This document shows, one piece after another, positions 5,165 to 63,800 of a DNA stretch of 64,000 bases; position 1 is the first letter of the stretch; each line of letters starts with the position of its first letter. Both the position numbers and the translations under genes were made by a program. The notes under the pieces are model-generated. The model made no database searches, was not told where the DNA came from, and saw nothing but the letters and a program-made list of their open reading frames with translations. Source of the DNA: Mobula hypostoma. Lineage: Eukaryota. Location: positions 54,438,001-54,502,000 of the forward strand of contig NC_086108.1 of the NCBI RefSeq assembly GCF_963921235.1, written 5' to 3'.

Positions 5165-6600
5165 AATTCAAACCTGGCAAGTGGGAAATAATGCATTTTA
5201 GGAAGTCAAATCGAGGCAGGGCATTTACAGTCAACAACAAGGAACGTTGATGAACAGAGGGACATCGAACATTGAACTGCACAGCACAGAACAACCCCTT
5301 TGGCCTACGGTGTTGTGCTGACCTTTTAACAAAATTAATCTAATCCTTCCCTCCTGCATATCCATGTGCCCAAGAATCTCTTAAGCGTCCTTCAGGTACC
5401 TGCCTCTACCACCATCCCTGGTAACACAATCCATGCACCCACCACTCTGTGTTTAAAATGAAAACTACTTCGGACATAATCCCACACAGAATGCTGGAGG
5501 AACTCAGCATGCTGTACATATTTTTCCATAGCAGGCCAGGCAGCATCTATGGAAAAAAAGTACAATTGACATTTCGGGCATCTCTGCCTGTTGAGTTCCT
5601 CCAGCATTTTGTGTGTTATTTGGATTTCCAGCATCTGCAGGTTTTCTCTTGTTTCTGACATAATGCAATCACTCTAAAATTATGCCTCCTTGTATTAGCT
5701 ACTTCCTTCCTTGGAAAAAAGGCACCGACTGTCCACTCTAGCAATGCCTCTCATTATCTTATATACATTACTCAAGCCAACTTTCATCCTCCTTCACTCC
5801 AAAAAGAAAAACCCTAGCTCGCTCAGCCTATAAGACATGCTCTCTAATTCAGGCAGCATCCTGGTAAATTTCCTCTGCACCCTCTCTAAAGCTTCTACAC
5901 TCTTCCTCTAATGAGACAACCAGAACCGAGCACAACACTCCAGTGGACCTTGGACCTCAAGCCCATAGTTCACTGGGGTGGAAATACAGATGGAAGGATG
6001 GCAAAGGCACCCATTTGGTATGCTTACCTTCATAGCGTGGGACACAGAATATAAAATTAAAAATGTTACATAATACTGGTTAGACCCCTCTTAGAGTATA
6101 GTGAGCAGCTCTAGTTGCCACATCTTAGGAGGGATGTGATTGTGCTAGAATTGGTAGAGAGGAGATTCACTAAGATGCAGCCTGGATTGACGGAGTTGAG
6201 TTCTGGTGAGACATTAGATAGTCTAGTCTTGTTTTCCCTGCAGCAAAGGATGTTGAGGTATGACCTGAAAGAGGTATACAAAACTCACAAGAGGTATAGG
6301 ATCGGGCAAGGAGTCATAATATTTATCCTGTGCTTAGAATATCAAGAACAAGGTGGCACAAATTCAAGGGAAAGGAATTCTGAAGGGGATTTGGGGGGAG
6401 GGTTGTTTTCCACAAAAATAGTTGAAATTGTACTGTGGAGGTGGTGAAATAAACACAATTACTAACTTTCAGAGAATTTTGGGTGGGCACCTCACCAGCA
6501 AGGCGCAGAAAAATATGGGCCTAGTGTAGGGGAATGAGCAAAGTGTCACACTGGTGTGGTAGGCCAAAGAGCCTGTTCAGCGCCGTGCAATACGACTGAA
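5165..6600. mobile_element. Cluster of degraded CR1 fragments in both orientations
   Basis: ORFs with HRVVGAWIVLP and LELVERRFTKMQPGL...SLQQRMLRYDLKEVYK. Confidence 0.75.
5481..5656 (+). mobile_element. Short Penelope-like fold-back remnant with TSD gacataat (5473-5480 / 5657-5664)
   Basis: atgctggaggaactca...tgagttcctccagcat inverted arms; same terminal sequence as the other PLE copies. Confidence 0.7.
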
Positions 6601-7044
6601 GAAAAACATCATCAACCGATAAATGGTCTTCGAACTTGACACCAAAACTCACGAATTGTTCTGCACTCAACGTGATCTCATGTACAGCACTCACAAGCCC
6701 CAATGGCCCTCTAGCTGTAATTATAGCGCAAACAGAAATAAACTAACACATGAAATGAAGTGGTAGTACAAACTTTTTTTCAAAGTCTCATATTTAGTCA
6801 CAACAATTAAAATGGGAGTGGCTAAATTAAAATAAAATTCTTCGCAACTACAAAAGAGTGAAGGAGCAACCCATTCCCATTGCTACTTCGTTAACACTTG
6901 GCAGATATTGACTAGTGTGGGCATCAGACAATTGGGTTTCTAAACTGAATATTTTACCAGTACGTATGCTCCTGAGCTGCCACAACAGCTCTCATACAGG
7001 AAGCAATGTACTGGGAAGAGATGAGAAATTATGACTCACAGTAC

Positions 7045-7399
7045 CTCTTTCAGTATGCGTCTCCACATAATTCCCATACTTCCTGTGATCATCACTTCAT
7101 GTTCTTTCTCCTTCTGTTCCTTCTCAATAGGCTCATAGCTGGTCATCAAGCGTTCATTTTCTGCTGAGATCAATAGGCTTGTTGGCTTAAATATTTCCGC
7201 TCCAAAATTCTTAGTCAGGGATTCCAGGGTTGCTAGGTACTTGACTTTGAGGTCATGAGGAGATACGTTGCTATCGCACACTGTCTTATTGTTGAACTCT
7301 TTCAGGAAATTTTTGAAGACGTTATTGATTCGACACCTGGTCAGGATGTTTCGCTGTTTGATACTTGAATTCAGTGTCTCGGGAATGTAATTCTTGTAA
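7045..7399 (-). CDS. JAK1: JAK1 coding exon (355 nt), [61 protein letters not shown]...MWRRILKE
   Basis: JAK1-specific [26 protein letters not shown] motif; ttttcag|T acceptor; GAG|gtactg donor gives phase 0. Confidence 0.95.
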
Positions 7400-8159
7400 C
7401 TGAAAAAAACAAGACAGTGTCACCTCACAATAGCATGCTACCTTGTACTTGAATGATGTTTCTGCAAAGGAAAAAATGCAATTAGCTTGGCAAATCCCTT
7501 TTATTTTAAATTGGATTTAAGGAACTCTTCCAATAATTGCCCTATAAAATGTACTTCTTGTCCAAATTAATTCAACATCCCATGAGGTTTAATAACAGTG
7601 CCCCAAACCCTATAGAAATCCATCCCAGAAGCATTGGAATGCCTTTACAGTGGTAGTGTTGGAAGAACTCTATGATAATGCCAACCTCAGCAACCATCTC
7701 CATCTGGGAATGCTACTTATTGTTCCCTCCCCTCTGCACACTTGTTGAATATTGCACCAAAAAGAAAAAAAACTATCGGATTTGTACTGGCAGTCTACGC
7801 TCCCAAGTTTCATAGAAAATAGTGGCTGGAGAAGCCATTCAGTTTAAGTCCAAGTTTCAACGTGATCATGATGATCATGGTTGATTATCCACTTTAATAC
7901 TCTGTTCGTGCCTTCCCTCCAAACTCTTCGACCACTCAAGCATCAAGAAACACATCTAGAGTCATAGAGGAGAGAACAGGTCTACACTGTAATCAGGAAC
8001 CCTTTGAAATTAATCCCATTTATTTTCTCTATCTTCCCAACAACTCCTCCTAGATTCCACTACTCACAAGCACTCGAAACAATTTTACTGTTACTAAGCC
8101 ACCCACCAACCACTTGTCTTTGGAATGTGAGACAAACGGAAGCATCCAGGGGAAACCCT

Positions 8160-18674: not shown

Positions 18675-19430
18675 AACAAAAGAAATTCTGCAGATGCTGG
18701 AAATCTTCAGCATCACGCGCAAAATGCTGGAGGAACTCATCAAGTCAAGCAGCATCTAGGCAGATGAGTAAACAGTTGGTGTTTCAGGTCAAGACCCTTC
18801 AGAAGGTCTGGAAAGGAAGGGGGCAGAGGCCAGTATAAGAAGGGGTGGGCTGGAAAAACTACAAGTTGTCATTTAATAGGTGTAACCAGGTGAAGGGCAT
18901 GGTGGGTGGGTGGGGGGGGGATGAAGTAAGAAGCTGGGACACGCTTCTTAGGGAAGGGGGTGTAGGCAACAGTGGAAGGAGATGGACAGTTGAAAAGAAG
19001 AGAACGTGTGAGAGGAGAACTAGAATGGGGAAAGGAAAAAGAGAGAAGAAACAGAAGTTAGTATAAACATTGATTTCTCTACCAGGTTAGGGGCTACAAA
19101 TAGAAAATGAGATGTTGTTTCTCCAACACAAGTATGGTCTGAAAGTGGCAGCAAAGGAGGCCGTGACAGACATATTGGGATGGGAATGGGAAGTCAGATT
19201 GAACTGGGCAACCAGTGAGAGATTCTACAACCTGCTGGTGAAATGTTGCCTCACCTGGAAGAACTGAATGGAGGTGAAGGATGAGGTGGAGAGGCACATG
19301 TAGCACTTGTCATGCTTGCAGGGATAAGTGCCATGAAGGAGATTTGTAGGAAAGGATGAAGACTTTTGGCCCTAAACTCCTCTCCAGCGATGCTGCCTGA
19401 CTTGCTAAGTTTCTCTTGCAGTTTGCACAT
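18675..19430 (-). mobile_element. Penelope-like element 3' fragment with short inverted 5' arm
   Basis: GIY-YIG C-terminus (HGLLCCH...LEKQHLIFYL), purine-rich 3' region, decayed hammerhead, fold-back end at about 19350-19425. Confidence 0.75.
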
Positions 19431-21992: not shown

Positions 21993-23022
21993 CAGACACA
22001 AGTGCTGGAGGAACGCAGAAAGTCAGGCAGCACCTATGGAGGGGAATATCTGTCGAAGTTTTGGGCCAGGACCCTTTAAAGGAAGGGGGTAGAAGTGAGA
22101 ATAAGGAGGTAGAGGAAGGGGAAGGAATATAAGTTGGCAGGTGATAGGTGAAACCAGGTGAGGGGGATGTTGGGTGGAAGTGGGAGGGTGGAGTAAGAAG
22201 CTGTAAGATGATAGGTGGAAGAGGTAAAAGGCTGAAGAAGAAGCAATCTGATAGGTGAGAATAGTAAACCATGGGAGAAAAGGAAGGAGAAGAGGCTCTA
22301 GAGGCATGGGATAGGCAGGTGAAGAAAAGATGAAAGAGGGAAGCCAGAAAGGGGAATGGCAAAATGGAGAAGGGGAGGGATGAGAAACTACTGGAAGTTA
22401 GAGAAATCACTGTTCATGACATTAGTTTGGGGGCTACCTAGCTGGAACATGAAGTGTTGCACTTCCAACCTGACGGTGACTATAGAGGTGATCATAGACC
22501 AACATGTTGGAATGGGAATGGCAAGTCAAATTCTGTCTGACCTCGAACCTGATAGCATGAACATCAACTTCTCTAACACCTGGTAAGTTCTCCCCCAATC
22601 CTTTCTTTCTTTTTCCATTTCCCATTCTGGCTCCCTTCTTAGCCCTTCTCCTCAACTGCTGATCACCCCCATCTGGTGCCCTGCCCCTTCCCTTTCTCTC
22701 ACGGTCCACTGCCCTCTCCAATAAGATTCCTCCTTTATCAGCCCCTTACCTCTTCAACTATCACCTCCCAGCTTCTGACTTCATCCCACTTCCCCCACCC
22801 ACCCACCTTCCCCCTCACCAGATTTCATCTGTAATCTGCCAGTTTGGACTCCTTCCACTCCCCCACCTTCTTATTCTGGCTTCTTCCCCCCTCCTTCCCA
22901 GGCCTGGTAAAGGGTATCGGCCCAAAGCATTGACTACTTATCCCTCTCCAGTCATGCTAAGCTCCTCCAGCATTTTGTGTGTTCTGCTCTGGATTTCCAA
23001 CATCTGCAGAATTTCTTGTATT
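21993..23022. mobile_element. Penelope-like element with long inverted (tail-out) arms
   Basis: Left arm minus, right arm plus (PDSMNINFSN EN end, C/T-rich UTR, decayed hammerhead at about 22898-22935, canonical terminus). Confidence 0.8.
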
Positions 23023-23498: not shown

Positions 23499-23712
23499 CA
23501 TACACACATTGTTGCCTATTTCCTGCTTTGGTGCATGCACCCTCTCCAATGTAATGTCATTTGTGATCCACCTCTGTAACTAAGTACATTTAGGAGCTTT
23601 AAGGGGTCTTCAAATGTCCTAAACTATAGGTGGTAACATTACAAATTGTTAAGAGCTGCTAATGTTGATTCTCCCTCAGTTAGCTTTTCTGCTAAATGCC
23701 AGTTAATTTTTC

Positions 23713-23877
23713 CCAGCCGTGGTGCAGACCAAACAAACCAGCCACACACTGACCAAAACCAAGTCGTTTGCACAAAACTTAAATTTGCCAAAGTTTTCTA
23801 GAGCAGAAGTTACTGAGTGTAAAATTCCCCCTTTTTCACTTTCAAGTTCCTTCTTATTGCTGAATGCAGAAAAACTT
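23713..23877. repeat. 165-bp unique intronic segment, duplicated in inverted orientation at 24590-24754
   Basis: Direct read-through comparison shows 3 substitutions in 165 bp. Confidence 0.97.
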
Positions 23878-24548
23878 TGGCAGAAATCTGAAATACTAAT
23901 CACACTTAAATTTATGTCATCTGTGGATTATGTGCAAAACGCCTTCCTTGAGCAATTTAGTTCATGCCATCATGGATATAAAATGCAATCATCTTACTTC
24001 ACAATGGGAGAAGAGCCAGAATTAGATTTATTATCACTGATTTATACAATGTGAAAATTGTTGCTCTGTGGCACCAATACGGTGCAAAGATATAAAATTA
24101 CTAAAATTTACAAAATACAAAGTGAAAAAAAAGAGGGGATGTCCATGGGCCATTCAGAAAATTGTTGGCAGAAGAGAAGAAACAGTTTCTGATTCACTGA
24201 GTGAGAGTCTTCAGGCTCCTCTACCTCCTCCCTGATCAGAGTAACAAAAGATGCCCTGGATGGCGAGGGTGATTAGAGATGGATGCTGCCTTCTTGATTA
24301 GATTAGATTATGAGGACACGCAGTCCTCTTTTATTGTCATTTAGTAATGCATGCATTAAGAAATGATACAATATTCCTCCAGTGTGATATCACAGAATCA
24401 CAGGACAGACCAAGACTGAAAAGCTAACAAAAACCACATAATTATAACATATAACAACAGGAATTCTGCAGATGCTGGAAATTCAAGCAACACACATCAA
24501 AGTTGCTGGTGAACGCAGCAGGCCAGGCAGCGTCTGTAGGAAGAGGTG

Positions 24549-24588
24549 CAGTCGACGTTTCATGCCGAGACCCTTCGTCAGGACTAAC
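24549..24588 (-). ncRNA. Minimal hammerhead ribozyme motif, second arm (sense to JAK1)
   Basis: AGUC-CUGACGA-A-GGGUCUCGGCAU-GAAA-C-GUC|GACU; core intact, one mismatch in stem II. Confidence 0.65.
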
Positions 24589-24757
24589 GAAGTTTTTCTG
24601 CATTCAGCAATAAAAAGGAAAATGAAAGTGAAAAAGGGGGAATTTTACACTCAGTAACTTCTGCTCTAGAAAACTTTGGCAAATTTAAGTTTTGTGCAAA
24701 CGACTTGGTTTTGGTCAGTGTGTGGCTGGTTTGTTTGGTCTGCACCACGGCTGGAAA

Positions 24758-24797
24758 GTTAGTCCTGACGAAGGGTCTCGGCCTGAAACGTCGACTA
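24758..24797 (+). ncRNA. Minimal type I hammerhead ribozyme motif (PLE-associated)
   Basis: UAGUC-CUGACGA-A-GGGUCUCGGCCU-GAAA-C-GUC|GACUA: intact core, stem I UAGUC/GACUA, stem II hairpin, vestigial palindromic helix III. Confidence 0.75.
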
Positions 24798-26829
24798 CAC
24801 CTCTTCCTACAGATGCTGCCTGGCCTGCTGCGTTCACCAGCAACTTTGACGTGTGTTAATTATAACATATAGTTACAACAGTGCAACAATACCATAACTT
24901 GATGAAGAACAGGCCATGGCACAGTAAAAAAGTTCAAAGTCTCTTCAAAGTCCCACATCTCACACAGACGGGAGAAGGAAGAAAACTCTCCCTGCCATGC
25001 CTGACCACAGTCCGACTCTGAGTCGTCCGAAAACTTCGAGCTCCAGTCAGCCCTCTGACACCGAGTACCGAGCACCATCTCTGCCGAACGCTTCGACCTC
25101 AGCCTCGGCTGCCAGCAGCAGGCAAAGCTGGGGATTTTGGGGCCTTCCCTCCGGAGATTCTCGATCGCACAGTAGCAGCGGCAGTGAAATGGGCATTTCA
25201 GAAATTTCTCCAGATGTTCCTCTGAGCCTTCTCACGTCTGTCTCCATCAAATCAGAATTGTGCACGGCATCCTACTTACAAATCCGATATCATTTCACCG
25301 GAGAGCTGCGCGCGCTGCGTCACGCACTCTCTCTTCAAAATTCCTTGAAGATGGTTGGGTTGTGCCTTTGATGGAAATGGTTGAGTCTAAAATCCTCTGT
25401 ACTCTCTTGCATTGCAGCCTCCACACCAGGCTGTGATAAAAATCAGTCAGAATGCTCCCCACCATACCTTCAGAAAACTCTGCAAGAGTCTTTAGTGGCA
25501 GAGAGCTGCATGGTCAATGGAATACTTTTGCAGAAGTTACTGTTACATAAAGGAAAGACAGCAATTTGCATGGAGCAACTTTCTATCAGCAGCAACACAA
25601 AAACAACCAGAAATGAAGAGCTTCAGTCACAAATTCACAGCCTGATCAAATATGAGGTTATTGCAGAAGACCTCAGGAACAACATCCTCAAGACCAGACA
25701 GAACTCCGACAGTGTTCTAGTATAGGGGGATCTCCCTGGTCTCTGCCAGAGTGCGAGTTGTCACCAAGGTTCTTCTCAGCTCATTCCCCTCTGCGGTTGA
25801 AGAGCTGCTCCTCAAATCACAGTCTAGCTTCCTTTCATCCAGAGTTCCAGTGGACATGATGGTGATTGGGAAACAGAACCAAGAAGAACAAGATGAAGAA
25901 GAAAACAACCAAGTAAATTTGGGGATTAATTATAGCCAAGGCACCATGGAAAATGCCATTTGTCTTCTTTCAAATAGCGCTACATGATTTTCCCAACCTC
26001 CTGAGAGAGTCCTTACACATTGATAAAGATTTGAAACAATACCTCCATAGCATGAGGTAGGAAATAAGGCAATGCTGGTGTTTATATTACTCCAAACTAA
26101 ATTTTCTGCAACTCAGGTTAACAATGCATAAGCACTGCATTTAGCCATTTTGTTTGACCTCTTACTGAAAGTTCGACTCACTACCGATGCATTTATTATT
26201 GGAACAGATGCTACATTTTGGAAAGTGCATAGAAGAATCAAGCTGCTGCTTTGCAAAGGCAGCAAAGGAAAACCACTGAACCTTTCAAACCAATTGTTCA
26301 GGTAGACCACAAAACAGGCCTTGTATGTCACAGGCTTGTTCCCAAAGTTTGCTACTTATCAATGAGCTCAGGTGAAAGCAATGGTTGCCAAGAAAATAAT
26401 TTAATTTGCTGCTGGAGAGCGGGGAGATGGGGGCACGGCACAGAAGGACACAATTCATTAAAGCTTTAGTTGGTATCCTGAGCTGTTATAAGTGTAATTA
26501 TAAGTGAAATGTTTGAAATGGAAATTTCCACCAAAAGTAATCTCAATTTCGCAACTATATTGAAAGGAACCACTTTACACCTTAAAGCAAGCCGGCGATT
26601 ATCCCAGGGACTCTTATCAGAACTTCAGCACTCCTGATGGATCAAGGGAAAAGGCTTGACCTTAAATTATGATTAAACTACCTTTAGTTAAAGCAAATAC
26701 AATGGAACTGCTAAATACCAAAAAAGATCAGAGAACACATTGCTGTACTTTGTTCACAAAACAAACACTGGTCATTGCACAAGATGCATGAAATAGTTTA
26801 ACTGCAGAAACGCAGCAGGGAATTTGCAT

Positions 26830-29311: not shown

Positions 29312-30680
29312 ATCTTCTTCCTTCTTCGGTTGTCCTTCGAAATCCGATGACGACGTCCACTCCTTTAACGGTGAGATCTTTGATGACTATACAGTCCTAT
29401 CCAGGACCCACAAGCTCTATTGCAGGTGGGACATGTATATGTAGTAGTGGTGGCAACCATGGCTGCATTTCTCCTGGCTCTCTTCTGCCGTCTTCTGGTT
29501 GTTCTTTCCATCTCCAGAATACGAATCCTGTCCCTACATTGCTGTGGGATGTTCTCATCAGTCCAGGCCTTTGTGATGTACTAGTAGAGTGTGTGCATAC
29601 ACATGTACCCTCCATTCTTCAGTAACTCAGCAGGGATATTGTCAGTGCCAAGGGACTTGTTGTTCTTAAGGGAATGGACAGCTGACAGAACCTCCTGCAA
29701 GGTTGGTGGTAGACTGAGGTTGTGGATAGGAGGAAGTTCAGGCAGTTCGTCCAGGATGGTGGGGTCTGCGTCAGAGTCCTGATTAAGCAGGGTGTTAAAA
29801 TGCTCAGCCCACCTCAGCAGAATTGTATTCTGATTCATCAGAAGTGTTAGACTATCTGCTGTTTCCAGGGGAGTAACACATCGATTTATTGGGCCGTAGG
29901 TGGTTTTGACAGCATTGTAAAAATTATGCATGTCATTATTATCAGCAAAGAACTGGATTTCGTGTGCCTTTTCAGTCCACCACTCATTTTGTATGCCCGT
30001 ATTGCCTTTTGCACTTTCCTCCGAGCTGCCTGCCAATGCTGCTCGATGCTGGGGGATGACGGGTAGTCTAAGGTTGCCCAGTGTGCTTTGTGCATGTCCT
30101 TAAGTAAGTTGTGCATGGTGTCTGGGTTATCGTCAAACCAGTCTTGGTGGTTCCTGCTCTTATGGCTGATGGATTGGGCTGCTGCCTCATAGAGTGCAGA
30201 GCTGATATAGGTCCACTGTTGTTCCATGGTATTTTCTGAGCTCAGACAAGGTTCCAGCTCCCTTAGTTTCTCAGCTAGGATGCGTCGAAACTCACTTCTT
30301 GCTTCTGTGTTTCTCAGGCGGTTGCAATTTAGCCGCTTTTTATTGGGTTTTTGCAGCCGCAAGGGGGGATGCACTTTCATATGCAGCTTGGCCACAATCA
30401 TACGGTGGTCAGTCCAGCACTCTGCACCTCTCATGGCACGGGTGATAAGAAAATCCTTGATGTCACTATGTCTCACAATGATGAAGTCTATCATGTGCCA
30501 ATGTTTAAAGCGAGTGTGCATCCACGAGGTCTTATATTTTGCCTTCTGCTGGAAGATGTTGGTTGAAGGTGAAGGTGTTGGTTATGGTAAGGTTATGCTC
30601 GGAGCAAACAGTAAGTAGCATCATGCAATTTGCATTCACCTTGTCAATACCATGCCTACCTAGCACTGCACTCCAGGTAT
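29312..30680 (-). mobile_element. RTE-clade LINE, internally deleted (APE endonuclease end + pre-RT region)
   Basis: KHWHMIDFIIVR...TRAMRGAECWTDHRMI; DWFDDN; RWAEHFNTLLN; GTDNIPAELLKNGG; (GAA)n tail. Confidence 0.9.
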
Positions 30681-31755: not shown

Positions 31756-31892
31756 AAGCCCGCACATGTAAAGTAGCCAATAAAACAACAGAAAACAACA
31801 GCTATTGGGAGAGGAAGAAAAAGCATTCCCATGGAAATTTAATGAAATATGTATTCTAAAGCATCGTTTCCAAAAAAATAATGAATTCCTAC

Positions 31893-32016
31893 CTCATCCG
31901 ATAATGCAACAATAGGGCTGTTTTGTCATCAACTTTGAAGGTGTGATTTGGAGGAAACCATAGTCTTTTATTTGGATCATACAACGCAAAGAGATTCTGG
32001 CATAATGGAGAAATAC
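31893..32016 (-). CDS. JAK1: JAK1 coding exon (124 nt), [41 protein letters not shown]
   Basis: Close match to JAK1 FERM F1 lobe; ttttcag|GT acceptor; AG|gtagg donor; phases 1 to 2. Confidence 0.97.
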
Positions 32017-32096
32017 CTGAAAAAGAAAAATTCAAAATGTTACCTAAAGCACAAAATGAAATCCGGCAAACAATGTAATATTGACTACAACAATCA

Positions 32097-32860
32097 CTAA
32101 TACTACTACATCGACTCAGGCCTAGGGGGCTGGCATCAGACACGATGACGGACTCTCCACTTCTCCCTCTCCCTCATCAGTGTGTTCAGTTCATCTACAC
32201 TAGCCGTGCTACTGTCTCCTAGGAGCTTGTTGACCATAGTCTTGGGAGGGCGCCCAGGGTTCATCCTCCTGTGCTTGAGCTCCCATATGATGACTAGGCT
32301 GGCAGGTAGCTCGGGTTGGCGTAGACACTGCCCCGCTAGTTGCAGTCTTCTCGCCTCAATTTTAATGGTGAGCATCGGTAGGTTCTTATACAGCTCGACG
32401 TTCGTCATGTGCTGTTGCCAACTCACATCAAGAGCCATCGGGAGTATTCGTGTATAGCAACCATCTAGAGACTTTCACATCATCTTGGTGAGTGTCCATG
32501 TCTTGCATCCGTACGTGAGAATGGACTCTATGACTGCTATGAAAATCCTCTTTTTAAGCCCTCTGGTCAGGTTCGACTTCCAGATTTCCTTCATGTCGTT
32601 CATAGCCCTCCACGCCAGTGCCTTCCGTATCTTTATGTCCTTCTCTGAACTCATCATTCTTGACCCGAGGTACTTGTAGTCAAAGACTTCCTTAATGGTA
32701 TCATTCTTTACGTCTTGAGAGTACCTTCGTCGCAGTTAAACACCATGTACTCTGTCTTTTTAGCGTTTAGGTGAAGTCCAACTTTATTGCACTCAATTTC
32801 CACTTTTGTCAGTAGCTGCTGTGCTTCCTCCATCTGGTCAGAGAGCAGGACTATGTCATC
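32097..32860 (-). mobile_element. RTE-like LINE 3' fragment with (TAG)n tail
   Basis: DDIVLLSD...GLHLNAKKTEYM; FDYKYLGS; ESILTYGC; same family as 15826-16270. Confidence 0.9.
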
Positions 32861-33204
32861 TATGTCAATCAAATAATAATTTAACATTTTCAAATGAATG
32901 AAAATAGAGATAGTAATAAAGGTCTTTCAGTCTGCCATGCCCAACTCCTTTCCACCAACCACCCAAAACAAGATTGATTTTTTTTTTTGCCCCTTATCTA
33001 GGCTTTTGGCAACATTTCTCACACCCATAATTTTCATGGCCAAAAAAGACAAAGGCAGAAAATATGTGGGAACACAATTAACTCCAAGACACGCACCATC
33101 TTGAGTGGGCATATTTCTGCAATCTGTTTCTGTAATTGGTTGAATACCTTGGAGTTCACTGCAACACATATCACCATCTTATTAAGGGCAGTTTGATGCC
33201 AGAA

Positions 33205-33430: not shown

Positions 33431-34295
33431 CTGGCATCAATTTTCCAGTATGTCCACAATCTAAATGAGCTTGAATTTTCAGATTTCTCCTATACCTATT
33501 ATGTTCGTGTTCAGCTTGCACTCAGATATCGAAACTAAAAACAGTTTGCGCATGCAGCTACAAGTGGAAACAATGGAAAAGTGGGCAGGCAACAGATGTT
33601 GTTTCCCATTTCGGCAAGCAAGCAACTAATTTGGACTTAGCAAATAAATGATGGTAGAGGTGTAATTAATAACCTGGTATATAGCAATCAGGGTAAAGTC
33701 ATGTGCCCTCTTTTAGCAGGGCCCATCTTGTTCCAAGTCAAACTCCGATCACAATTCATAAAGATTTTGATTTCAAATATATTTCATGGAAGAACATTCA
33801 ACATTAGCCTAAGAGTATTGCCTACCTACAAAAATATTAGAAATATTGAGTGGTCTCCAAAATTCAAAGTTACCTACATCAGTAAGAAAGGGACTGCCAA
33901 CATTATACTGACTAACAATTTGGAAATATCGAGAATCAACTAATGTCACATGATCACCTAACAGTACAATAAATGTTCAAACAAAAAGAAGAAAGCACTG
34001 CTAACACTGTCTGTTTCTATTTAAAGGTAGGCAGCCAATTACAAGAATTGCTGATGTGGCTATTCCTTTTCCAACTGAGCAAAAAAAATTTCATTTAGAT
34101 AAATCAGCAGCAGAGACATTGACAGGACAAGTTTGATTTCCAATTTTATCCCTTCAGAATTATCGTGGGAGATTACATCAGAATTGGATTGGAATTTGAT
34201 GATCCATAAAACAACATGACTGAGAGAATGATGCAAGAGACCACTTCCTTTCTTATGTTCATGTATTCTTGGAATACAGCATTTTTTTTTCTTAC

Positions 34296-34461
34296 CACAT
34301 TTCTTGGCAGCTTCAATGCACAAATCCTCAGCTGTATGCTCGCCCTCTTGACATTTGATGATTGAATTGTTTACATATCTGAACACTTCCATGCCTTTAT
34401 TGGGAACTACCGGCTGCATCTGCAAGATATACGATTTGCTTTTTTTCAAGCAGAAGTCCAT
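34296..34461 (-). CDS. JAK1: JAK1 first coding exon (exon spans 34487-34296; ATG at 34461), MDFCLKKSK...GEHTAEDLCIEAAKKC
   Basis: Translation resembles the JAK1 N-terminus (MAFC...GEYTAEELCIRAAQAC); acceptor tttatag|GATC at 34488/34487; donor TGTG|gtaag at 34296/34295, phase 1. Confidence 0.9.
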
Positions 34462-34929
34462 CACATAGGTCTATTTTCATTTAGATCCTATAAAACAAAT
34501 ACCAAAATGTTATTTCGTTTAAAAACACAAAGTGAAATTGCAACAGAAACTAGGATGAGTTTGGTTTAGTGCACTACTTTTGCAACCTAAGGCAGCAATG
34601 TTAATTGATGAAATTCTGCATACATTGCAAAGGACTTGGCCAATTTCATTGTCCGCTGAAGTCTGTGCAGAGCATATCAAGCAAATTGTAAAAACTAACT
34701 ATCCACTCAAGTGTGGACTTTCGACCCTGAAAGTCAGATTAATTTCTTGCAGTTAATTCTCATTTTAGTTTACTTAATTTTGGATGGTTTAGAAGACAAA
34801 GGCTGTAGATGAATATATCACCTGGATAACATTGCATTGCCTCCCAGAATGCGAAACACAAAGGACCACTGAATTGCAGCAAATCAAAATACCAAAATAT
34901 TTTTCCTAGCTGGTTGTATTATGAATCAT

Positions 34930-36065
34930 AAGCACAAGAGATTCTACAGATGCAGATGCTGGCAATCCAGAGCAGCACACACAAAATCCTGGAGAAACTC
35001 AACATCTATGGAAATGAGTAAATATTTTGGGCCAAGGCCCTACGTTGGGACCGAAAAGGAAAGGGAGAAGAAGCCAGAATAAAAAGTGAGGGAGGTGGAG
35101 GTGGAGGGGAAGGAGTACAAGCTAGAAGGTGATAGGTGAAGCCAGAAGGGTGGAGGAGAAGCTGGGAGATGATAGGTGGAAAAGGTAAAGGGCTGGAGAA
35201 GAAAGAATCAGATAGGGGAGCGCATTGAGAGAGGGAGAGGGGGGAGAGGGGGGGGAGAGAGGGGGGAGAGAGGGGGGGGAGAGAGGGGGGGAGAGAGGGG
35301 GGGAGAGAGGGGGGGGAGAGAGGGGGGAGAGAGGGGGAGAGAGGGGGGGAGAGAGGGGGGGAGAGAGGGGGGAGGGGGGGAGAGAGGGGGGAGAGAGGGG
35401 GTGGAGAGAGGGGGTGGAGAGAGGGGGGAGAGAGGGGGAGAGAGGGGGAGAGAGGGGGAGAGAGGGGGGAGAGAGGGGGGAGAGAGGGGGGAGAGAGGGG
35501 GAGAGAGGGTGAGAGCGGGTGAGAGAGGGGGAGAGGGGGGAGAGGGGGGGAGAGGGGGGAGAGAGGGGGGAGAGAGGGGGGAGAGAGGGGGAGAGAGGGG
35601 GAGAGAGGGGGGAGAGAGGGGGGAGAGAGGGGGAGAGAGGGGGAGAGAGGGGGAGAGAGGGGGAGAGAGGGGGGGGAGAGGGGGGGAGAAAGGGAGGGAG
35701 AAAGGGAGGGAGAAAGGGAGGGAGAAAGGGAGGGAGAAAGGGAGGGAGAACAGACACCTGGGGGAGGTGATAGGCAAGTGAAGATAAGAGAAGAGGCAGG
35801 GGGAGGGTGCAGAATGGGGAATTGGAGAAGAGAAGGGGAATGAGGGAAAATTATTTGAAGCTGGAAAAAAAACTGGTGTTCATGCCATCAGGTTGGAGGC
35901 TAACCAGATGAACTACAAGGTTTGCTACTCCAACTGGAGAGTGGACTTATCATGGCGGTAGAGGAGGCGATGGAACAACATATTGAAATGGGAATGGGGA
36001 TTGGAATTAAGATGGATTGCCAGCGGGAAATACTCCTTTTTGCAGATGGAGCAAAGGTGCTCAAC
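34930..36065 (-). mobile_element. Penelope-like 3' fragment containing an expanded G/A-rich repeat
   Basis: Same terminus and purine-rich UTR as other copies; EN C-terminal remnant at about 35860-36040. Confidence 0.75.
35227..35749. repeat. About 520-bp polypurine (G4-7 AGAGA)n tract followed by (GGGAGAAAGGGA)x5
   Basis: Directly visible; source of the spurious G/E/R- and P/L/S-rich ORFs. Confidence 0.98.
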
Positions 36066-60874: not shown

Positions 60875-63800
60875 CCACAAGACCATAAGGCTACTAACCC
60901 CAATGAGCCTGTTCCGCTATTCTATCATGGCTGATTTATTGTCTGTCTCAACCCCATTCTCTGCCTTCTCCCCGTAACCTTTGACACCCTAACAAACAAA
61001 GAATCTGTCGCTCTGGTTTAAATATACTCCTTAACTTGGCCTCCACAGCTATCCACGGCAATGAATTCCACAGACTCTCTACTCTCTGGCTAAATAAATT
61101 CCTCTTCATCTCTGTTCTAAAAGGACGCTCCTCTATTCTGTGGCTGTACCCTCTGGTCCTAGACTCCCCTACTATAGGAAACATCCTCTGCACATCCACT
61201 CTATCTAGGCCTTTTGGTATTCGATAGGTTTCAGTGAAAATCCTCCTCATTCTTCTAAGTTCCAGCGAGTACAGGCCCAAAGCTATTAAACATTCCTCAT
61301 ACGTTAACCCTTTCATTTCCAGAAACATTTGCGTGAACCTCCTCTGGACCTTCTACAATGCTAGTACATCTTTTCTTAGATAAAGGGCCCAATACTGCTT
61401 ACAATATTCTAGCTGCAGTCTGACCAATAAGATGGGTAAGACTTTATAGCCTCATAAAGGCTCAGCATCAAATCTTTGCTCTTACATTATAGTCCTCTCA
61501 AAATGAATGCTAACATTGCATTTGCCTTCCTTACCACCTTTAGGGAATCCTGCACAAGGACTCCCAAGTCCCTCTGCACCTCGGATTTTTGAATTGTCTC
61601 CCCATTTAGACAATAGTCTACACCATTATCCTTCTACTAAAGTGCATGGCCATATACTTCCCTACACCTTATTCCATCTACCACTTTCCCCAATATGTCC
61701 AAGTCCTTCTTCAGATATCCTGCTTCCACAGTACTGCCTGCTTCTCCATCTATCTTTGCATCATCTGTAAACTTGGCCACAAAAGCCATCAAATCAGTCA
61801 TCCAAATCATTGAAATGTAACATGAAAAGAAGCTGCCAACAGCGATTCCTGCAGAACACTACTAGACACTGGCAGTCAACCAGAAAAGGCCACATTTGTT
61901 CCCACTCTTTGCTTCCTGCCAGTCAGCCAATCTTCTATGAACACTAGTATCTTTCCTGTTATACTATGGTCTTTTTATCTTTCTAAGCAGCCTAATGTGC
62001 AGCACTTTGTCAATGGCCTTCTGAAAATCCAAGTAAACAAAATCCAACGCCTATCCTGCCTGTTATTTCCTCAAAGAATTCCAATAGATTTGTCAGGCAA
62101 GATTTTCCATTAAGGAAACCATGCTGACTTTGGCCTACTTTATCATGTGCCTCCAAGTACCCTGAAACATCCTCCTTAATAATGGATTCTAACATCTTCC
62201 CAACCACTGAAATCAGGCTAACAGGGCTATAATCTTCTTTCTTCTGCCTCCCTCCCTTCTCAAAGAGCATAGTGACATTTGCAATATTTCAGTCTTCCAG
62301 AACCATTCCAGAATCTAGTGATCCATGAAAGATAATTTCTAATACCTCCACAATCTCTTCAGTTACCACTTTCAGAACTCTGGGGTGCAGTCCATCTGGT
62401 CCAACTGATTTATTTACCTTCACACCTTTCAACTTCTCAAGGACCCTCTCGTCATTAATAGCAAGAGCATTCACTTCTGCCCCCTGACACACTCAAATTT
62501 CTGGCCTACTGCTATTGTCTTCCACAGTGAAGACTGATGCAAAATACTTAAGTTTGCTTGCCATTTCTTTGTCCCCAGTTACTACCTCTCCAGATTTATT
62601 TTCTAGCAGTCCAATATCTACTCTGCCGCTCTTTTACTCTTTATATATCTTAAAAATATATATTCTCTTTGATATAATTGGGTAGCTTACCTTGATGTTT
62701 TAATTTTTCTCTCTTTATGTTTTTTCTTTGCCTTCTGTTGATTTTTAAAAGCTTCCCCATCATCTAATTTATCTAACCATCTAATTTTTGCAATATCTTA
62801 TGCCCTCTCTTTAGCTTTTATGCTGTCTTTGACATCCCTTGTCAGCCACAATTGTCTCATTCTCCTTTTCGAATACTTATTCATCTTTGGGATGTATCTA
62901 ATCTGTGCCTTCCAAATTGCCCACAGAACTCCAGCCACTGCTGTTCTGCTGTCACCCCTGCTAGTGTCCTGTTCCAATCATCTTTGGCCAGTTCCTCTCT
63001 CATGACTCTGTAATTCTCTTTACTCCATTGTAATACTGATACATCTGACTTCATCCTAAGAGTTCCTTTACCTTAAGCTCCTTAATAAAATCTGGTTCAT
63101 TACACAATGCAGAATTGCCTTTCCCCTAGTGGATTCAAACATGAGCTGCACTAAAATGACATCTCGTAAGCATTCTAAAAAATTCTCTGTCTTGGGATCC
63201 AGCACCAACCTGATTTTCCCAATCTACAGGCATATTGAAATTCCCCATGACTATCATAACATTGCCTTTATTTTGTCTTTTCTATTTCACATTGAAATTT
63301 ATAACCCACATCCTGGCTACTATTCGGGGCTCTGTATATAACGCCCATCAGGGTTCTTTTACCCTTAAAATCCCTGAGGAACTCAGCAGGTCAGGCAGCT
63401 TCTATGGAAGGTCTTAGCCTGAAATGTCGACTGTATTCACTTCCATAGATGCTGTCTGACCTGCTGAGTTCCTCTAGCATTTTGTTTGTGTCGCTTTGGG
63501 TTTCCAGCATCTGCAGAATTTCTTGCGTTTATCCTTCTACCTTACAGTTTCTTAATTCTACCCAGAAGGATTCTTCCAATCCTATGTCACCTCTGCCTGA
63601 GGATTTAATTTCATGTTCTACCAACAGAGCTTCCCCAGGCCCTCTGCCTACCTGTCTGTCCTTTCAATACAAAAGTATATCCTTTGGCTATTGAGCTCCC
63701 AACTGTGATCTTCTTTCAGGCACGTCTCAGTGATGCCCACATGATTCCTGCCCAACTTTAAGATTTATTATTTTGTAGTGTAGTAATTCGGTATGCAGCA

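Follow-up and report, generated by a model that had tools for sequence, protein, structure and literature searches.

A Penelope-like fold-back insertion in a predicted JAK1 intron of Mobula hypostoma holds an inverted copy of nearby host DNA between its arms

How does a stretch of host DNA, otherwise present only a few hundred base pairs away, come to lie inverted inside a retroelement insertion? This question is raised by a locus in a 64,000-nucleotide stretch of the Mobula hypostoma genome (contig NC_086108.1, positions 54,438,001 to 54,502,000; hereafter the window, in which all positions are counted from the first letter). A preliminary description had seen there an inverted-arm insertion with a 15-bp target-site duplication (TSD), the 3' terminus of a Penelope-like element (PLE) and an inverted copy of upstream sequence, and we found all of these in their places. 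A direct-repeat search of the window delimited a block of 403 bp (24454-24856) between two exact copies of the TSD, TAATTATAACATATA, and an inverted-repeat search identified the cargo between the two PLE arms (Table 1).

The arms are unequal. Both are inverted PLE arms as first described, but the left one is longer than had been thought and reaches the complete 3' end of the element (136 nt, tailed), and the right one lacks the last 35 nt (100 nt, tail-less). Over 100 nt (24489-24588 against 24758-24857) they are 96% complementary, and compared with the majority of 28 genomic copies the left arm differs at 1 of 136 positions and the right arm at 3 of 100. The junction nucleotide between left arm and cargo, a G at 24589, is explained by neither of its neighbours. 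The preliminary description had proposed to search for an empty site in other individuals or related species; a paralogous copy of the flanking repeat (L024), in which the TSD motif occurs once, provides one in this genome; together with the exact 15-bp TSD, this argues that the block is a single insertion. The flanks themselves belong to a high-copy repeat, so that read joints skipping the insertion stem from paralogues and are uninformative on the orthologous site. As a side effect, the intron now contains one inverted repeat of 168 nt and another of 100 nt, which cross each other.

Table 1. Features of the insertion, its source and its host gene in the window
Feature	Position	Strand	Remarks
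Open frame with predicted JAK1 exon (FERM F2, Jak1 PH-like)	7039..7419	-	Pfam FERM_F2 7.7e-26; Jak1_Phl 26.2 bits
Cargo source	23710..23877	+	single-copy intron DNA, 576 bp left of insertion point
Left TSD copy	24439..24453	.	15 bp, exact direct repeat; motif once in uninterrupted paralogous repeat L024
Left PLE arm, complete 3' end	24454..24589	-	last 136 nt of element 3' UTR
Tail of left PLE arm	24454-24488	-	about 35 nt, within the 24454-24589 arm
Minimal hammerhead-like motif, left arm	24549..24586	-	by eye; C>A change in helix II
Cargo	24590..24757	+	168 nt, inverted copy of 23710-23877
Right PLE arm, inverted relative to the left	24758..24856	+	element positions 2-100; without the 35-nt tail
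Minimal hammerhead-like motif, right arm	24760..24797	+	by eye
Right TSD copy	24857..24871	.	15 bp, exact direct repeat
Open frame with predicted JAK1 FERM F1 exon	31892..32173	-	Pfam FERM_F1 5.1e-16

Where does the cargo come from? Apart from four mismatches (at 24614, 24621, 24622 and 24755) it is the reverse complement of its source. It had been described as 165 bp starting at 23713 and derived from about 560 bp away; the inverted copy and its nearby origin hold, while its extent proved to be 168 nt with a source starting at 23710, and the measured distance is 576 bp. As had been anticipated, the cargo occurs at exactly two places in the 3.48-Gb genome (both of two candidates scored), which rules out a dispersed repeat or a part of the PLE itself. 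No PLE homology adjoining the source was found in the window, which argues against transduction from a neighbouring PLE copy. Cargo and source differ at 4 of 168 positions; this divergence is similar to that of the two arms from their family, so the cargo copy is of about the same age as the insertion. Situated left of the cut and 576-744 bp away, the source shares its side with the tailed arm. A 612-nt read contig of run X1 covers the source region (23514-24053) with 0 differences at a depth of 11.3. At the left junction, element and source have three nucleotides in common (AAG), and at the right junction a single A is common to both sides.

The host gene was identified by a Pfam scan of open frames of at least 62 aa (150 of 287 frames, up to about 34.4 kb). 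Two minus-strand frames with FERM exons lie on either side of the block, placing it within an intron of a minus-strand gene. The frame at 7039..7419 has its best solved relatives in JAK1 (4e-43 to 7.5e-43), followed by TYK2 (2e-11) and JAK2 (1.3e-06). Judged from these matches, the host gene is JAK1, as had been suspected from the start.

By the sequence of its copies, the element belongs to a true Penelope-like family of the canonical, endonuclease-bearing type, with an ORF that ends in a predicted GIY-YIG domain. In copy L004, a frame directly upstream of the same 3' UTR (691-1209, 172 aa) matches Pfam GIY-YIG with 22.8 bits (E 0.00012), barely above the cut-off of 22.6; two other frames of L004 gave no Pfam match, the loci analysed reaching about 1.5 kb beyond the arm in the upstream direction. 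The family is very abundant and young, the 40 scored copies of the arm being 96-100% identical. One strict fold-back pattern matched 2321 times genome-wide, and its reversed control never. PLE insertions are known for frequent 5' truncation, an adjoining inverted truncated copy and a tail of 30-40 bp at one end only (PMC8557442). Among 35 sampled fold-backs analysed here, 27 combine one tailed arm with a partner ending at element position 93-110, 10 are near-symmetric hairpins, and 33 have a gap between the arms of -9 to +17 nt. Flanking direct repeats of at least 9 nt were found in 26 of the 35, in 23 of these with a length of 12-15 nt, and in none of 35 controls. The routine product of the family is thus a fold-back of one tailed and one tail-less arm within a 12-15-bp duplication.

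The arms had also been described as ribozyme-bearing. Guided by the features described for minimal PLE hammerheads in metazoans (Cervera and de la Pena 2014, PMC4209133), we recognized by eye in both arms the core CUGACGA and GAAAC, corresponding to the conserved CUGANGA ... GAAA, together with a helix I of 5 bp (UAGUC with GACUG or GACUA), an extra A, a short helix II and a palindromic ACGU. The core is kept in many of 25 diverged copies and altered in several. Related subfamilies have a fuller form, GGGU-CUCG-GCCC with G10.1-C11.1, and the young subfamily of this insertion carries a U at 11.1 (G-U pair). The hammerheads stand at the level of the motif but not as an Rfam family match, as no hammerhead was obtained at the gathering score over the window, nor at E<=1 over 24300-25000. 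The sole Rfam match, MIR8562 (25.6 bits, where the gathering score is 211), is an artefact of the long hairpin. Since the two motifs lie on opposite strands, no single transcript contains both in sense orientation, as self-cleavage in the form of a dimer of two sense copies would require, and a ribozyme logic of the cassette finds no support.

Is host DNA at the junction a common feature of these fold-backs? In a sample of 50 of the 2321 (35 analysed in full, 15 judged from their end sequences only), we found no case of unique host filler, and among the 58 genome-wide matches of a targeted pattern it was present only at the JAK1 intron locus. Long junction fillers of 54 and 76 nt occur in two of the 35 (L065 and L047). 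Our reading is that they derive from elsewhere in the element, which BLAST confirmed in the case of L065 and which for L047 is judged from the sequence by eye; this implies that multi-step switching takes place in the family. The fillers of L065, C1:56812935 and C1:64711561 match the stretch of the element after the tail in L004, the last two by eye. A candidate host filler at C1:80908752 was rejected as a dispersed repeat with 2246 matches, and shorter uncovered pieces in L035, L054 and L067 were judged, by eye only, to be element variants or low-complexity sequence. At such a frequency, the capture does not serve as a general route for local duplication of regulatory DNA, for which it had been put forward as a candidate.

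The structure is read most economically as the result of a template switch while the element integrated. We think that the block probably arose in one aberrant PLE integration, read here from its single product, in which synthesis first switched to a template nearby and afterwards to the other cDNA. The preliminary description had suggested a jump of the reverse transcriptase from element RNA onto genomic DNA or JAK1 intron RNA and back; its switch of template is supported, and the sequence is compatible with both a DNA and an RNA template. What the data show is the anatomy, the origin in one event, the uniqueness of the cargo, the microhomologies at the junctions and the habit of the family to form fold-backs; that both ends primed, in which order the switches came, and which polymerase and which template took part, we infer. 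The PLE endonuclease would have made a staggered double cut of 15 nt in an older repeat within the JAK1 intron, and both cut 3' ends would have primed reverse transcription of the element RNA, the plus-strand end at the RNA's extreme end, giving the 136-nt tailed arm, and the minus-strand end about 35 nt further in, giving the tail-less one. In normal copies, the two cDNAs would then be joined head to head as synthesis leaves the RNA and jumps to the other cDNA. The extra step at the JAK1 locus would have been an annealing of the growing strand, near element position 1-2, to a local template by the three nucleotides AAG; after 168 nt had been copied, a 1-nt annealing to the end of the other cDNA would have allowed completion. 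As this local template we favour the plus strand of the left target end, which may have become single-stranded by resection and snapped back in cis.

Several of these steps have precedents. Both strands of the target are cut and extended by a PLE protein, which has internal starts at two sites (PMC11167929); this would explain the tail. PLEs have been suggested to prime themselves and to jump between templates, and unrelated sequence between their pLTRs was found inside TSDs (PMC3846280); for LINE-1 insertions 5' resection, self-annealing of cDNA ends and templated insertions have been described (PMC11702581). A snap-back in cis on the resected 3' strand predicts a cargo that is inverted, on the side of the tailed arm and nearby, and this is what we see. 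The copy is inverted, its source and the extending 3' end lie on one side of the cut, and there is microhomology at both switches; the cargo's length of 168 nt, however, is far above the mostly 5-34 bp reported for fold-back templated insertions at yeast breaks (PMC11724301).

Could the cargo have been copied from RNA instead? In the same integration, the tail-less cDNA, extended to about element position 1, could have jumped onto the minus-sense pre-mRNA at 23710, copied it to 23877 and then reached the end of the other cDNA. We regard this course as possible though rather unlikely, and we lean to some degree towards flanking DNA in cis over nascent JAK1 intron RNA as the template. As JAK1 lies on the minus strand, intron RNA of the right sense runs through the source and would have been available to the tail-less cDNA; the enzyme changes templates, PLEs have been suggested to perform such jumps (PMC3846280), and the other long fillers look element-derived, suggesting RNA templates. 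The strand of the host gene was considered as a test between RNA and DNA template and rejected, since either cDNA could have jumped. On the other hand, an RNA acceptor could have lain anywhere in a long intron or in any abundant RNA, and a distance of 576 bp is not predicted unless nascent RNA was held at the site; moreover, this course allows either orientation of the cargo, whereas the cis-DNA model predicts the inverted one observed. That the 168 nt come from nascent unspliced JAK1 intron RNA by an end-to-end jump, and that Penelope integrations can thus retro-copy local pre-mRNA, we consider unlikely. If true, such retro-copying would plant inverted repeats, and with them potential long dsRNA, in the intron that is hit, here in a gene of the interferon signalling pathway.

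Against our preferred reading stand the shortness of the microhomologies (3 nt and 1 nt) and the G at 24589, which is unaccounted for. The two arms also stop at element positions that coincide to within about 5 nt, which would fit equally a plain palindrome that broke later at its centre. A near-perfect PLE hairpin could have inserted first and later have been broken at its centre, trimmed to about element position 1-2 and filled in with 168 nt from the flank. The near-symmetric hairpins among the sampled fold-backs (10 of 35) are potentially fragile, and inverted templated insertions are a known product of break repair (PMC11724301). Such a history is nevertheless quite unlikely, as it requires a second independent event at exactly the same spot, as thousands of similar hairpins are still intact, and as the 4 of 168 differences between cargo and source are not below the expectation from the arms, so that not much time can have passed between insertion and fill-in. 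An assembly artefact, in which reads were mis-joined in a palindromic repeat and nearby sequence was pulled in, appears extremely improbable. Tandem and inverted PLE structures do trouble assemblies (PMC8557442), and the reads of four runs, used as contigs of short-read type, include no contig seen to span the whole structure. However, had the same reads been mis-joined, the four differences between cargo and source would not have arisen, and the architecture of TSD and arms is exactly that of the family. In addition, run X1 has a contig that reaches a depth of 5.7 over the cargo-specific bin 24616-24679. A 158-nt contig of run X5, which carries another organism label, equals 23720-23877 with 0 differences and ends exactly at the cargo boundary 23877, as expected of a fork in the read graph there, which we take as a hint only. 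The contigs of X5, X10 and X13 leave the cargo-specific bin uncovered, which is no evidence of absence.

The locus comes close to several known systems and differs from each of them. As in PLEs with inverted 5'-truncated copies (Craig et al. 2021, PMC8557442; Frangieh et al. 2024, PMC11167929), a tailed arm is joined by a tail-less inverted copy, a TSD surrounds the whole unit, and the terminal repeat carries a hammerhead motif and the ORF a predicted terminal GIY-YIG domain; in the standard product, however, the arms are joined directly, whereas here 168 nt of unique host DNA lie between them. The Penelope pLTR capture of Adineta vaga (Arkhipova et al. 2013, PMC3846280) likewise has non-element DNA framed by PLE repeats, bounded by a TSD and with an empty site. 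There, a gene lies between direct pLTRs and was moved in trans, while the inverted arms, the 168-nt cargo and the source 576 bp away point here to a copying slip in integration and not to a mobilized pLTR-framed unit. LINE-1 twin priming and templated insertions (Mendez-Dorantes et al. 2024 preprint, PMC11702581) resemble our locus in priming from both strands, in the retained TSD, in microhomology at internal junctions and in a cDNA 3' end that anneals to its own resected flank. PLEs are nevertheless another class of retroelement, with a GIY-YIG endonuclease and a telomerase-like RT, and twin priming in LINE-1 yields an inverted part copied from a more 5' stretch of the RNA than the direct part, whereas both arms here correspond to the same 100 nt (element positions 2-100). 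Fold-back templated insertions at double-strand breaks are also inverted, near the break and have microhomology at the switches, but in the yeast account (PMC11724301) they reportedly measure mostly 5-34 bp, compared with 168 bp inside a retroelement insertion here.

PLE repeats with unrelated DNA captured between them, and templated fillers at LINE-1 insertions, are already published, and the JAK1 locus is a clean example of what is, in this family, a rare slip. As a source of change in the host genome it is minor, occurring about once among thousands of fold-backs. The mode of PLE integration is still poorly understood, and this copy would be a natural record of an integration with three templates, whose junctions can be read to the base. 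It supports priming by both target strands and suggests that the integration intermediate may be able to copy any nearby single-stranded template.

Reading of 23500–25100, together with a repeat finder, confirmed the anatomy proposed for this insertion in the JAK1 intron, namely a target-site duplication (TSD), the 3′ terminus of a Penelope-like element (PLE), an inverted copy of host DNA and an inverted second arm. The host segment between the arms (the cargo), described as a 165-bp inverted copy of 23713–23877, is indeed inverted; its extent had to be corrected to 168 nt from 23710–23877 (the source). The element 3′ end in the left arm adjoins the left copy of the 15-bp repeat, and the right arm carries the sense sequence on the plus strand without the element's last 35 nt. 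Three bases past the right TSD copy (24872–24885), the flank reads ACAACAG, the same 7 bases that start the inserted left arm, where they are the complement of the element 3′ end; this match may reflect chance or a homology that aided priming.

Features of the insertion and of the surrounding JAK1 region (positions in the window)
Feature	Position	Strand	Details
High-copy repeat hosting the insertion	24168–24453 and 24872–25300		paralogues in L024, L025, L006
Exact 15-bp direct repeat (TSD)	24439–24453 and 24857–24871		TAATTATAACATATA
Left arm, full length	24454–24589	element sense minus	136 nt
Inverted arms	24489–24588 and 24758–24857		100 nt, 96% complementary, 169 nt apart; repeat finder
Cargo, reverse complement of 23710–23877	24590–24757		168 nt, 98%, 712 nt from source; repeat finder
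FERM F1 exons, open frames	34063–34470 and 31892–32173	minus	Pfam
FERM F2 and Jak1 PH-like domain, open frame	7039–7419	minus	Pfam
RVT_1 reverse-transcriptase match	32711–32926	minus	30.8 bits
Weak C2H2 zinc-finger match	29368–29580	minus	below cut-off
Older element fragments	5586–5652, 18676–19266, 22389–22577, 35877–36065, 62927–63523		69–92% identical to reference copy L021

The flanks of the block 24454–24856 belong to a high-copy repeat, with a read-contig depth of 10^5–10^6 versus ~11 over the source; Pfam gave no match in the open frames tested in its two tabulated stretches. In L024, a paralogue from the same genome, the repeat runs unbroken through the insertion site and holds the 15-bp motif once. 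This paralogous empty site shows that the block arrived as one piece, in agreement with the preliminary description of one insertion within a TSD.

With the left arm as query, the 3.48-Gb assembly yielded at least 917 first-look candidates, and the 40 that were scored are 96–100% identical. A common sequence extends upstream of the arm in 29 fetched loci, and in L004 and similar copies it leads to an open frame with a terminal GIY-YIG domain (Pfam 22.8 bits, cut-off 22.6), which upholds the Penelope-like identity claimed for the insertion. The arms are therefore the terminal part of the ~430-nt 3′ UTR in a PLE that is young and very abundant. At three loci (L004, positions 350–520; L005; L065) the element continues for at least 171 nt beyond the usual ...TGTTGT end as tandem copies, which fits the pseudo-LTR arrangement reported in PMC8557442. 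Many other copies show a few bases of this continuation (TTGCGTTTAA...), varying in number, before the flank, so the start point of reverse transcription varies.

Fold-backs, i.e. two inverted arms, are a routine product of this family. A strict pattern, with both arms reaching element position 2 and 20–400 nt between them, occurs at 2321 places in the genome, and its reversed control at none. Among the first 35 of these, which were fully analysed, 27 combine a tailed arm with another arm ending at position 93–110 (136 and 100 at the JAK1 locus), and the arm-to-arm gap is −9 to +17 nt in 33. Flanking direct repeats of at least 9 nt were found in 26 (12–15 nt in 23 of these; 0/35 in a shifted control). 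The sampled fold-backs thus agree with the published picture of an inverted truncated copy with a 30–40-bp tail at one end only (PMC8557442) and of a PLE protein that cuts and extends both target strands, beginning at two internal sites (PMC11167929).

Is the capture of unique host DNA equally common? The cargo had been expected at exactly two genome places, and the genome search returned two candidates, both scored: the cargo itself and its source. A repeat or a part of the PLE is thereby ruled out as its identity. Since no element homology adjoins the source, a read-through transcript from a neighbouring PLE copy seems unlikely. Fillers of at least 50 nt occur in 2 of the 35 fold-backs (54 and 76 nt), and we read both as derived from other element parts (L065 by BLAST, L047 by eye). 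In another 15, for which the printed ends were inspected, there are three fillers: two match, by eye, the L004 stretch after the tail, and the third, with 2246 matches, is dispersed repeat sequence. A targeted pattern (an arm ending at position 2, then two non-T bases) has 58 matches genome-wide, and by our reading only the JAK1 locus among them continues into non-element DNA. Unique host DNA at the junction is therefore rare in the family; a junction insert from nearby DNA, as proposed, holds for the JAK1 locus, with none in the 50 sampled fold-backs and no other among the 58 matches.

In the plus-strand direction the block reads as an unbroken product of three parts: antisense element, for which RNA would have been the template; the complement of the 23877–23710 plus strand; and sense element, whose template was presumably the other cDNA. 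Across the left junction, the ...ACTAAC of the antisense arm is followed by a single G and then by AAG, the start of the cargo; the element continuation there is TGAAGG, so AAG is common to both. The right junction has one shared A. We consider it probable that an ordinary two-ended integration underwent one extra template switch before the cDNAs joined. Alternatively, a plain hairpin could have broken later at its centre, with copying of this kind during the repair: the end points of the two arms differ by no more than ~5 nt, and near-symmetric fold-backs make up 10 of the 35. This would take another, separate event at that very site and finds no support in the divergence figures, and we regard it as unlikely. 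Against the majority sequence of 28 copies, the arms show differences at 1/136 and 3/100 positions, and the cargo differs from its source at 4/168; the cargo copy is thus about as old as the insertion. At all four differences (24614, 24621–24622, 24755) the cargo plus strand reads A, in an A-rich context and with one adjacent pair, which might reflect error-prone copying.

An assembly artefact is very improbable, given the cargo's own four differences, an architecture that is that of the family, and a read contig (X1) spanning the cargo-specific bin 24616–24679. A further contig under another organism label (X5) has its end precisely on 23877, the cargo boundary, which is a hint only. It is 158 nt long, matches 23720–23877 without differences and starts just past 23719, a base differing in that organism; its end would be as expected if that organism also has the second copy.

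For the extra switch, the preliminary description had left the template as nearby DNA or JAK1 intron RNA; within this integration-coupled reading we lean modestly towards DNA. Resection would bare the plus strand of the left target end itself, and this strand would snap back in cis; under this model the cargo should be inverted and come from a short distance away on that side, as is seen. A LINE-1 parallel is described in PMC11702581. Nascent JAK1 intron RNA would be at hand in the right sense for the tail-less cDNA behind the right arm, as JAK1 lies on the minus strand, but by itself it does not explain the closeness of the source.

The arms had also been called ribozyme-bearing. Rfam found no hammerhead at gathering score across the window and none at E ≤ 1 across 24300–25000; by eye, both arms hold CUGACGA, an extra A, a short helix II, GAAAC with a palindromic ACGU, and a 5-bp helix I. 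Many of 25 more diverged copies keep a fuller form (helix II GGGU-CUCG-GCCC) with the features listed for minimal PLE hammerheads by Cervera and de la Peña (PMC4209133). The young subfamily has U instead of C11.1, and the left arm one further helix II change. PLE hammerhead motifs are thought to work as dimers of two sense copies; here each strand holds one of the two motifs, which leaves the cassette with no ribozyme logic of its own.

Arkhipova et al. (PMC3846280) describe Penelope repeats and TSDs on either side of a host gene and, in 'a few other cases', of unrelated sequence; they propose self-priming and template jumps. In open-access text we found no paper on a Penelope fold-back with filler traced to the adjacent flank. 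The JAK1-intron copy is therefore a new, unusually legible case of a known phenomenon.

The assignment of the host gene to JAK1 was borne out by the FERM and Jak1 PH-like exons, from a Pfam scan of 150 of the 287 open frames, and by the best solved relatives (JAK1 4e-43 to 7.5e-43, versus TYK2 2e-11 and JAK2 1.3e-06). The RVT_1 and C2H2 frames are probably parts of other intronic mobile elements. Folded as RNA, the block gives a 100-bp hairpin (−235.6 kcal/mol, z −22). In the minus-strand sense of the pre-mRNA, the intron holds two crossing inverted repeats (23710–24857), cargo with source and arm with arm; long double-stranded RNA could arise from either one in the unspliced transcript of this interferon-pathway kinase.
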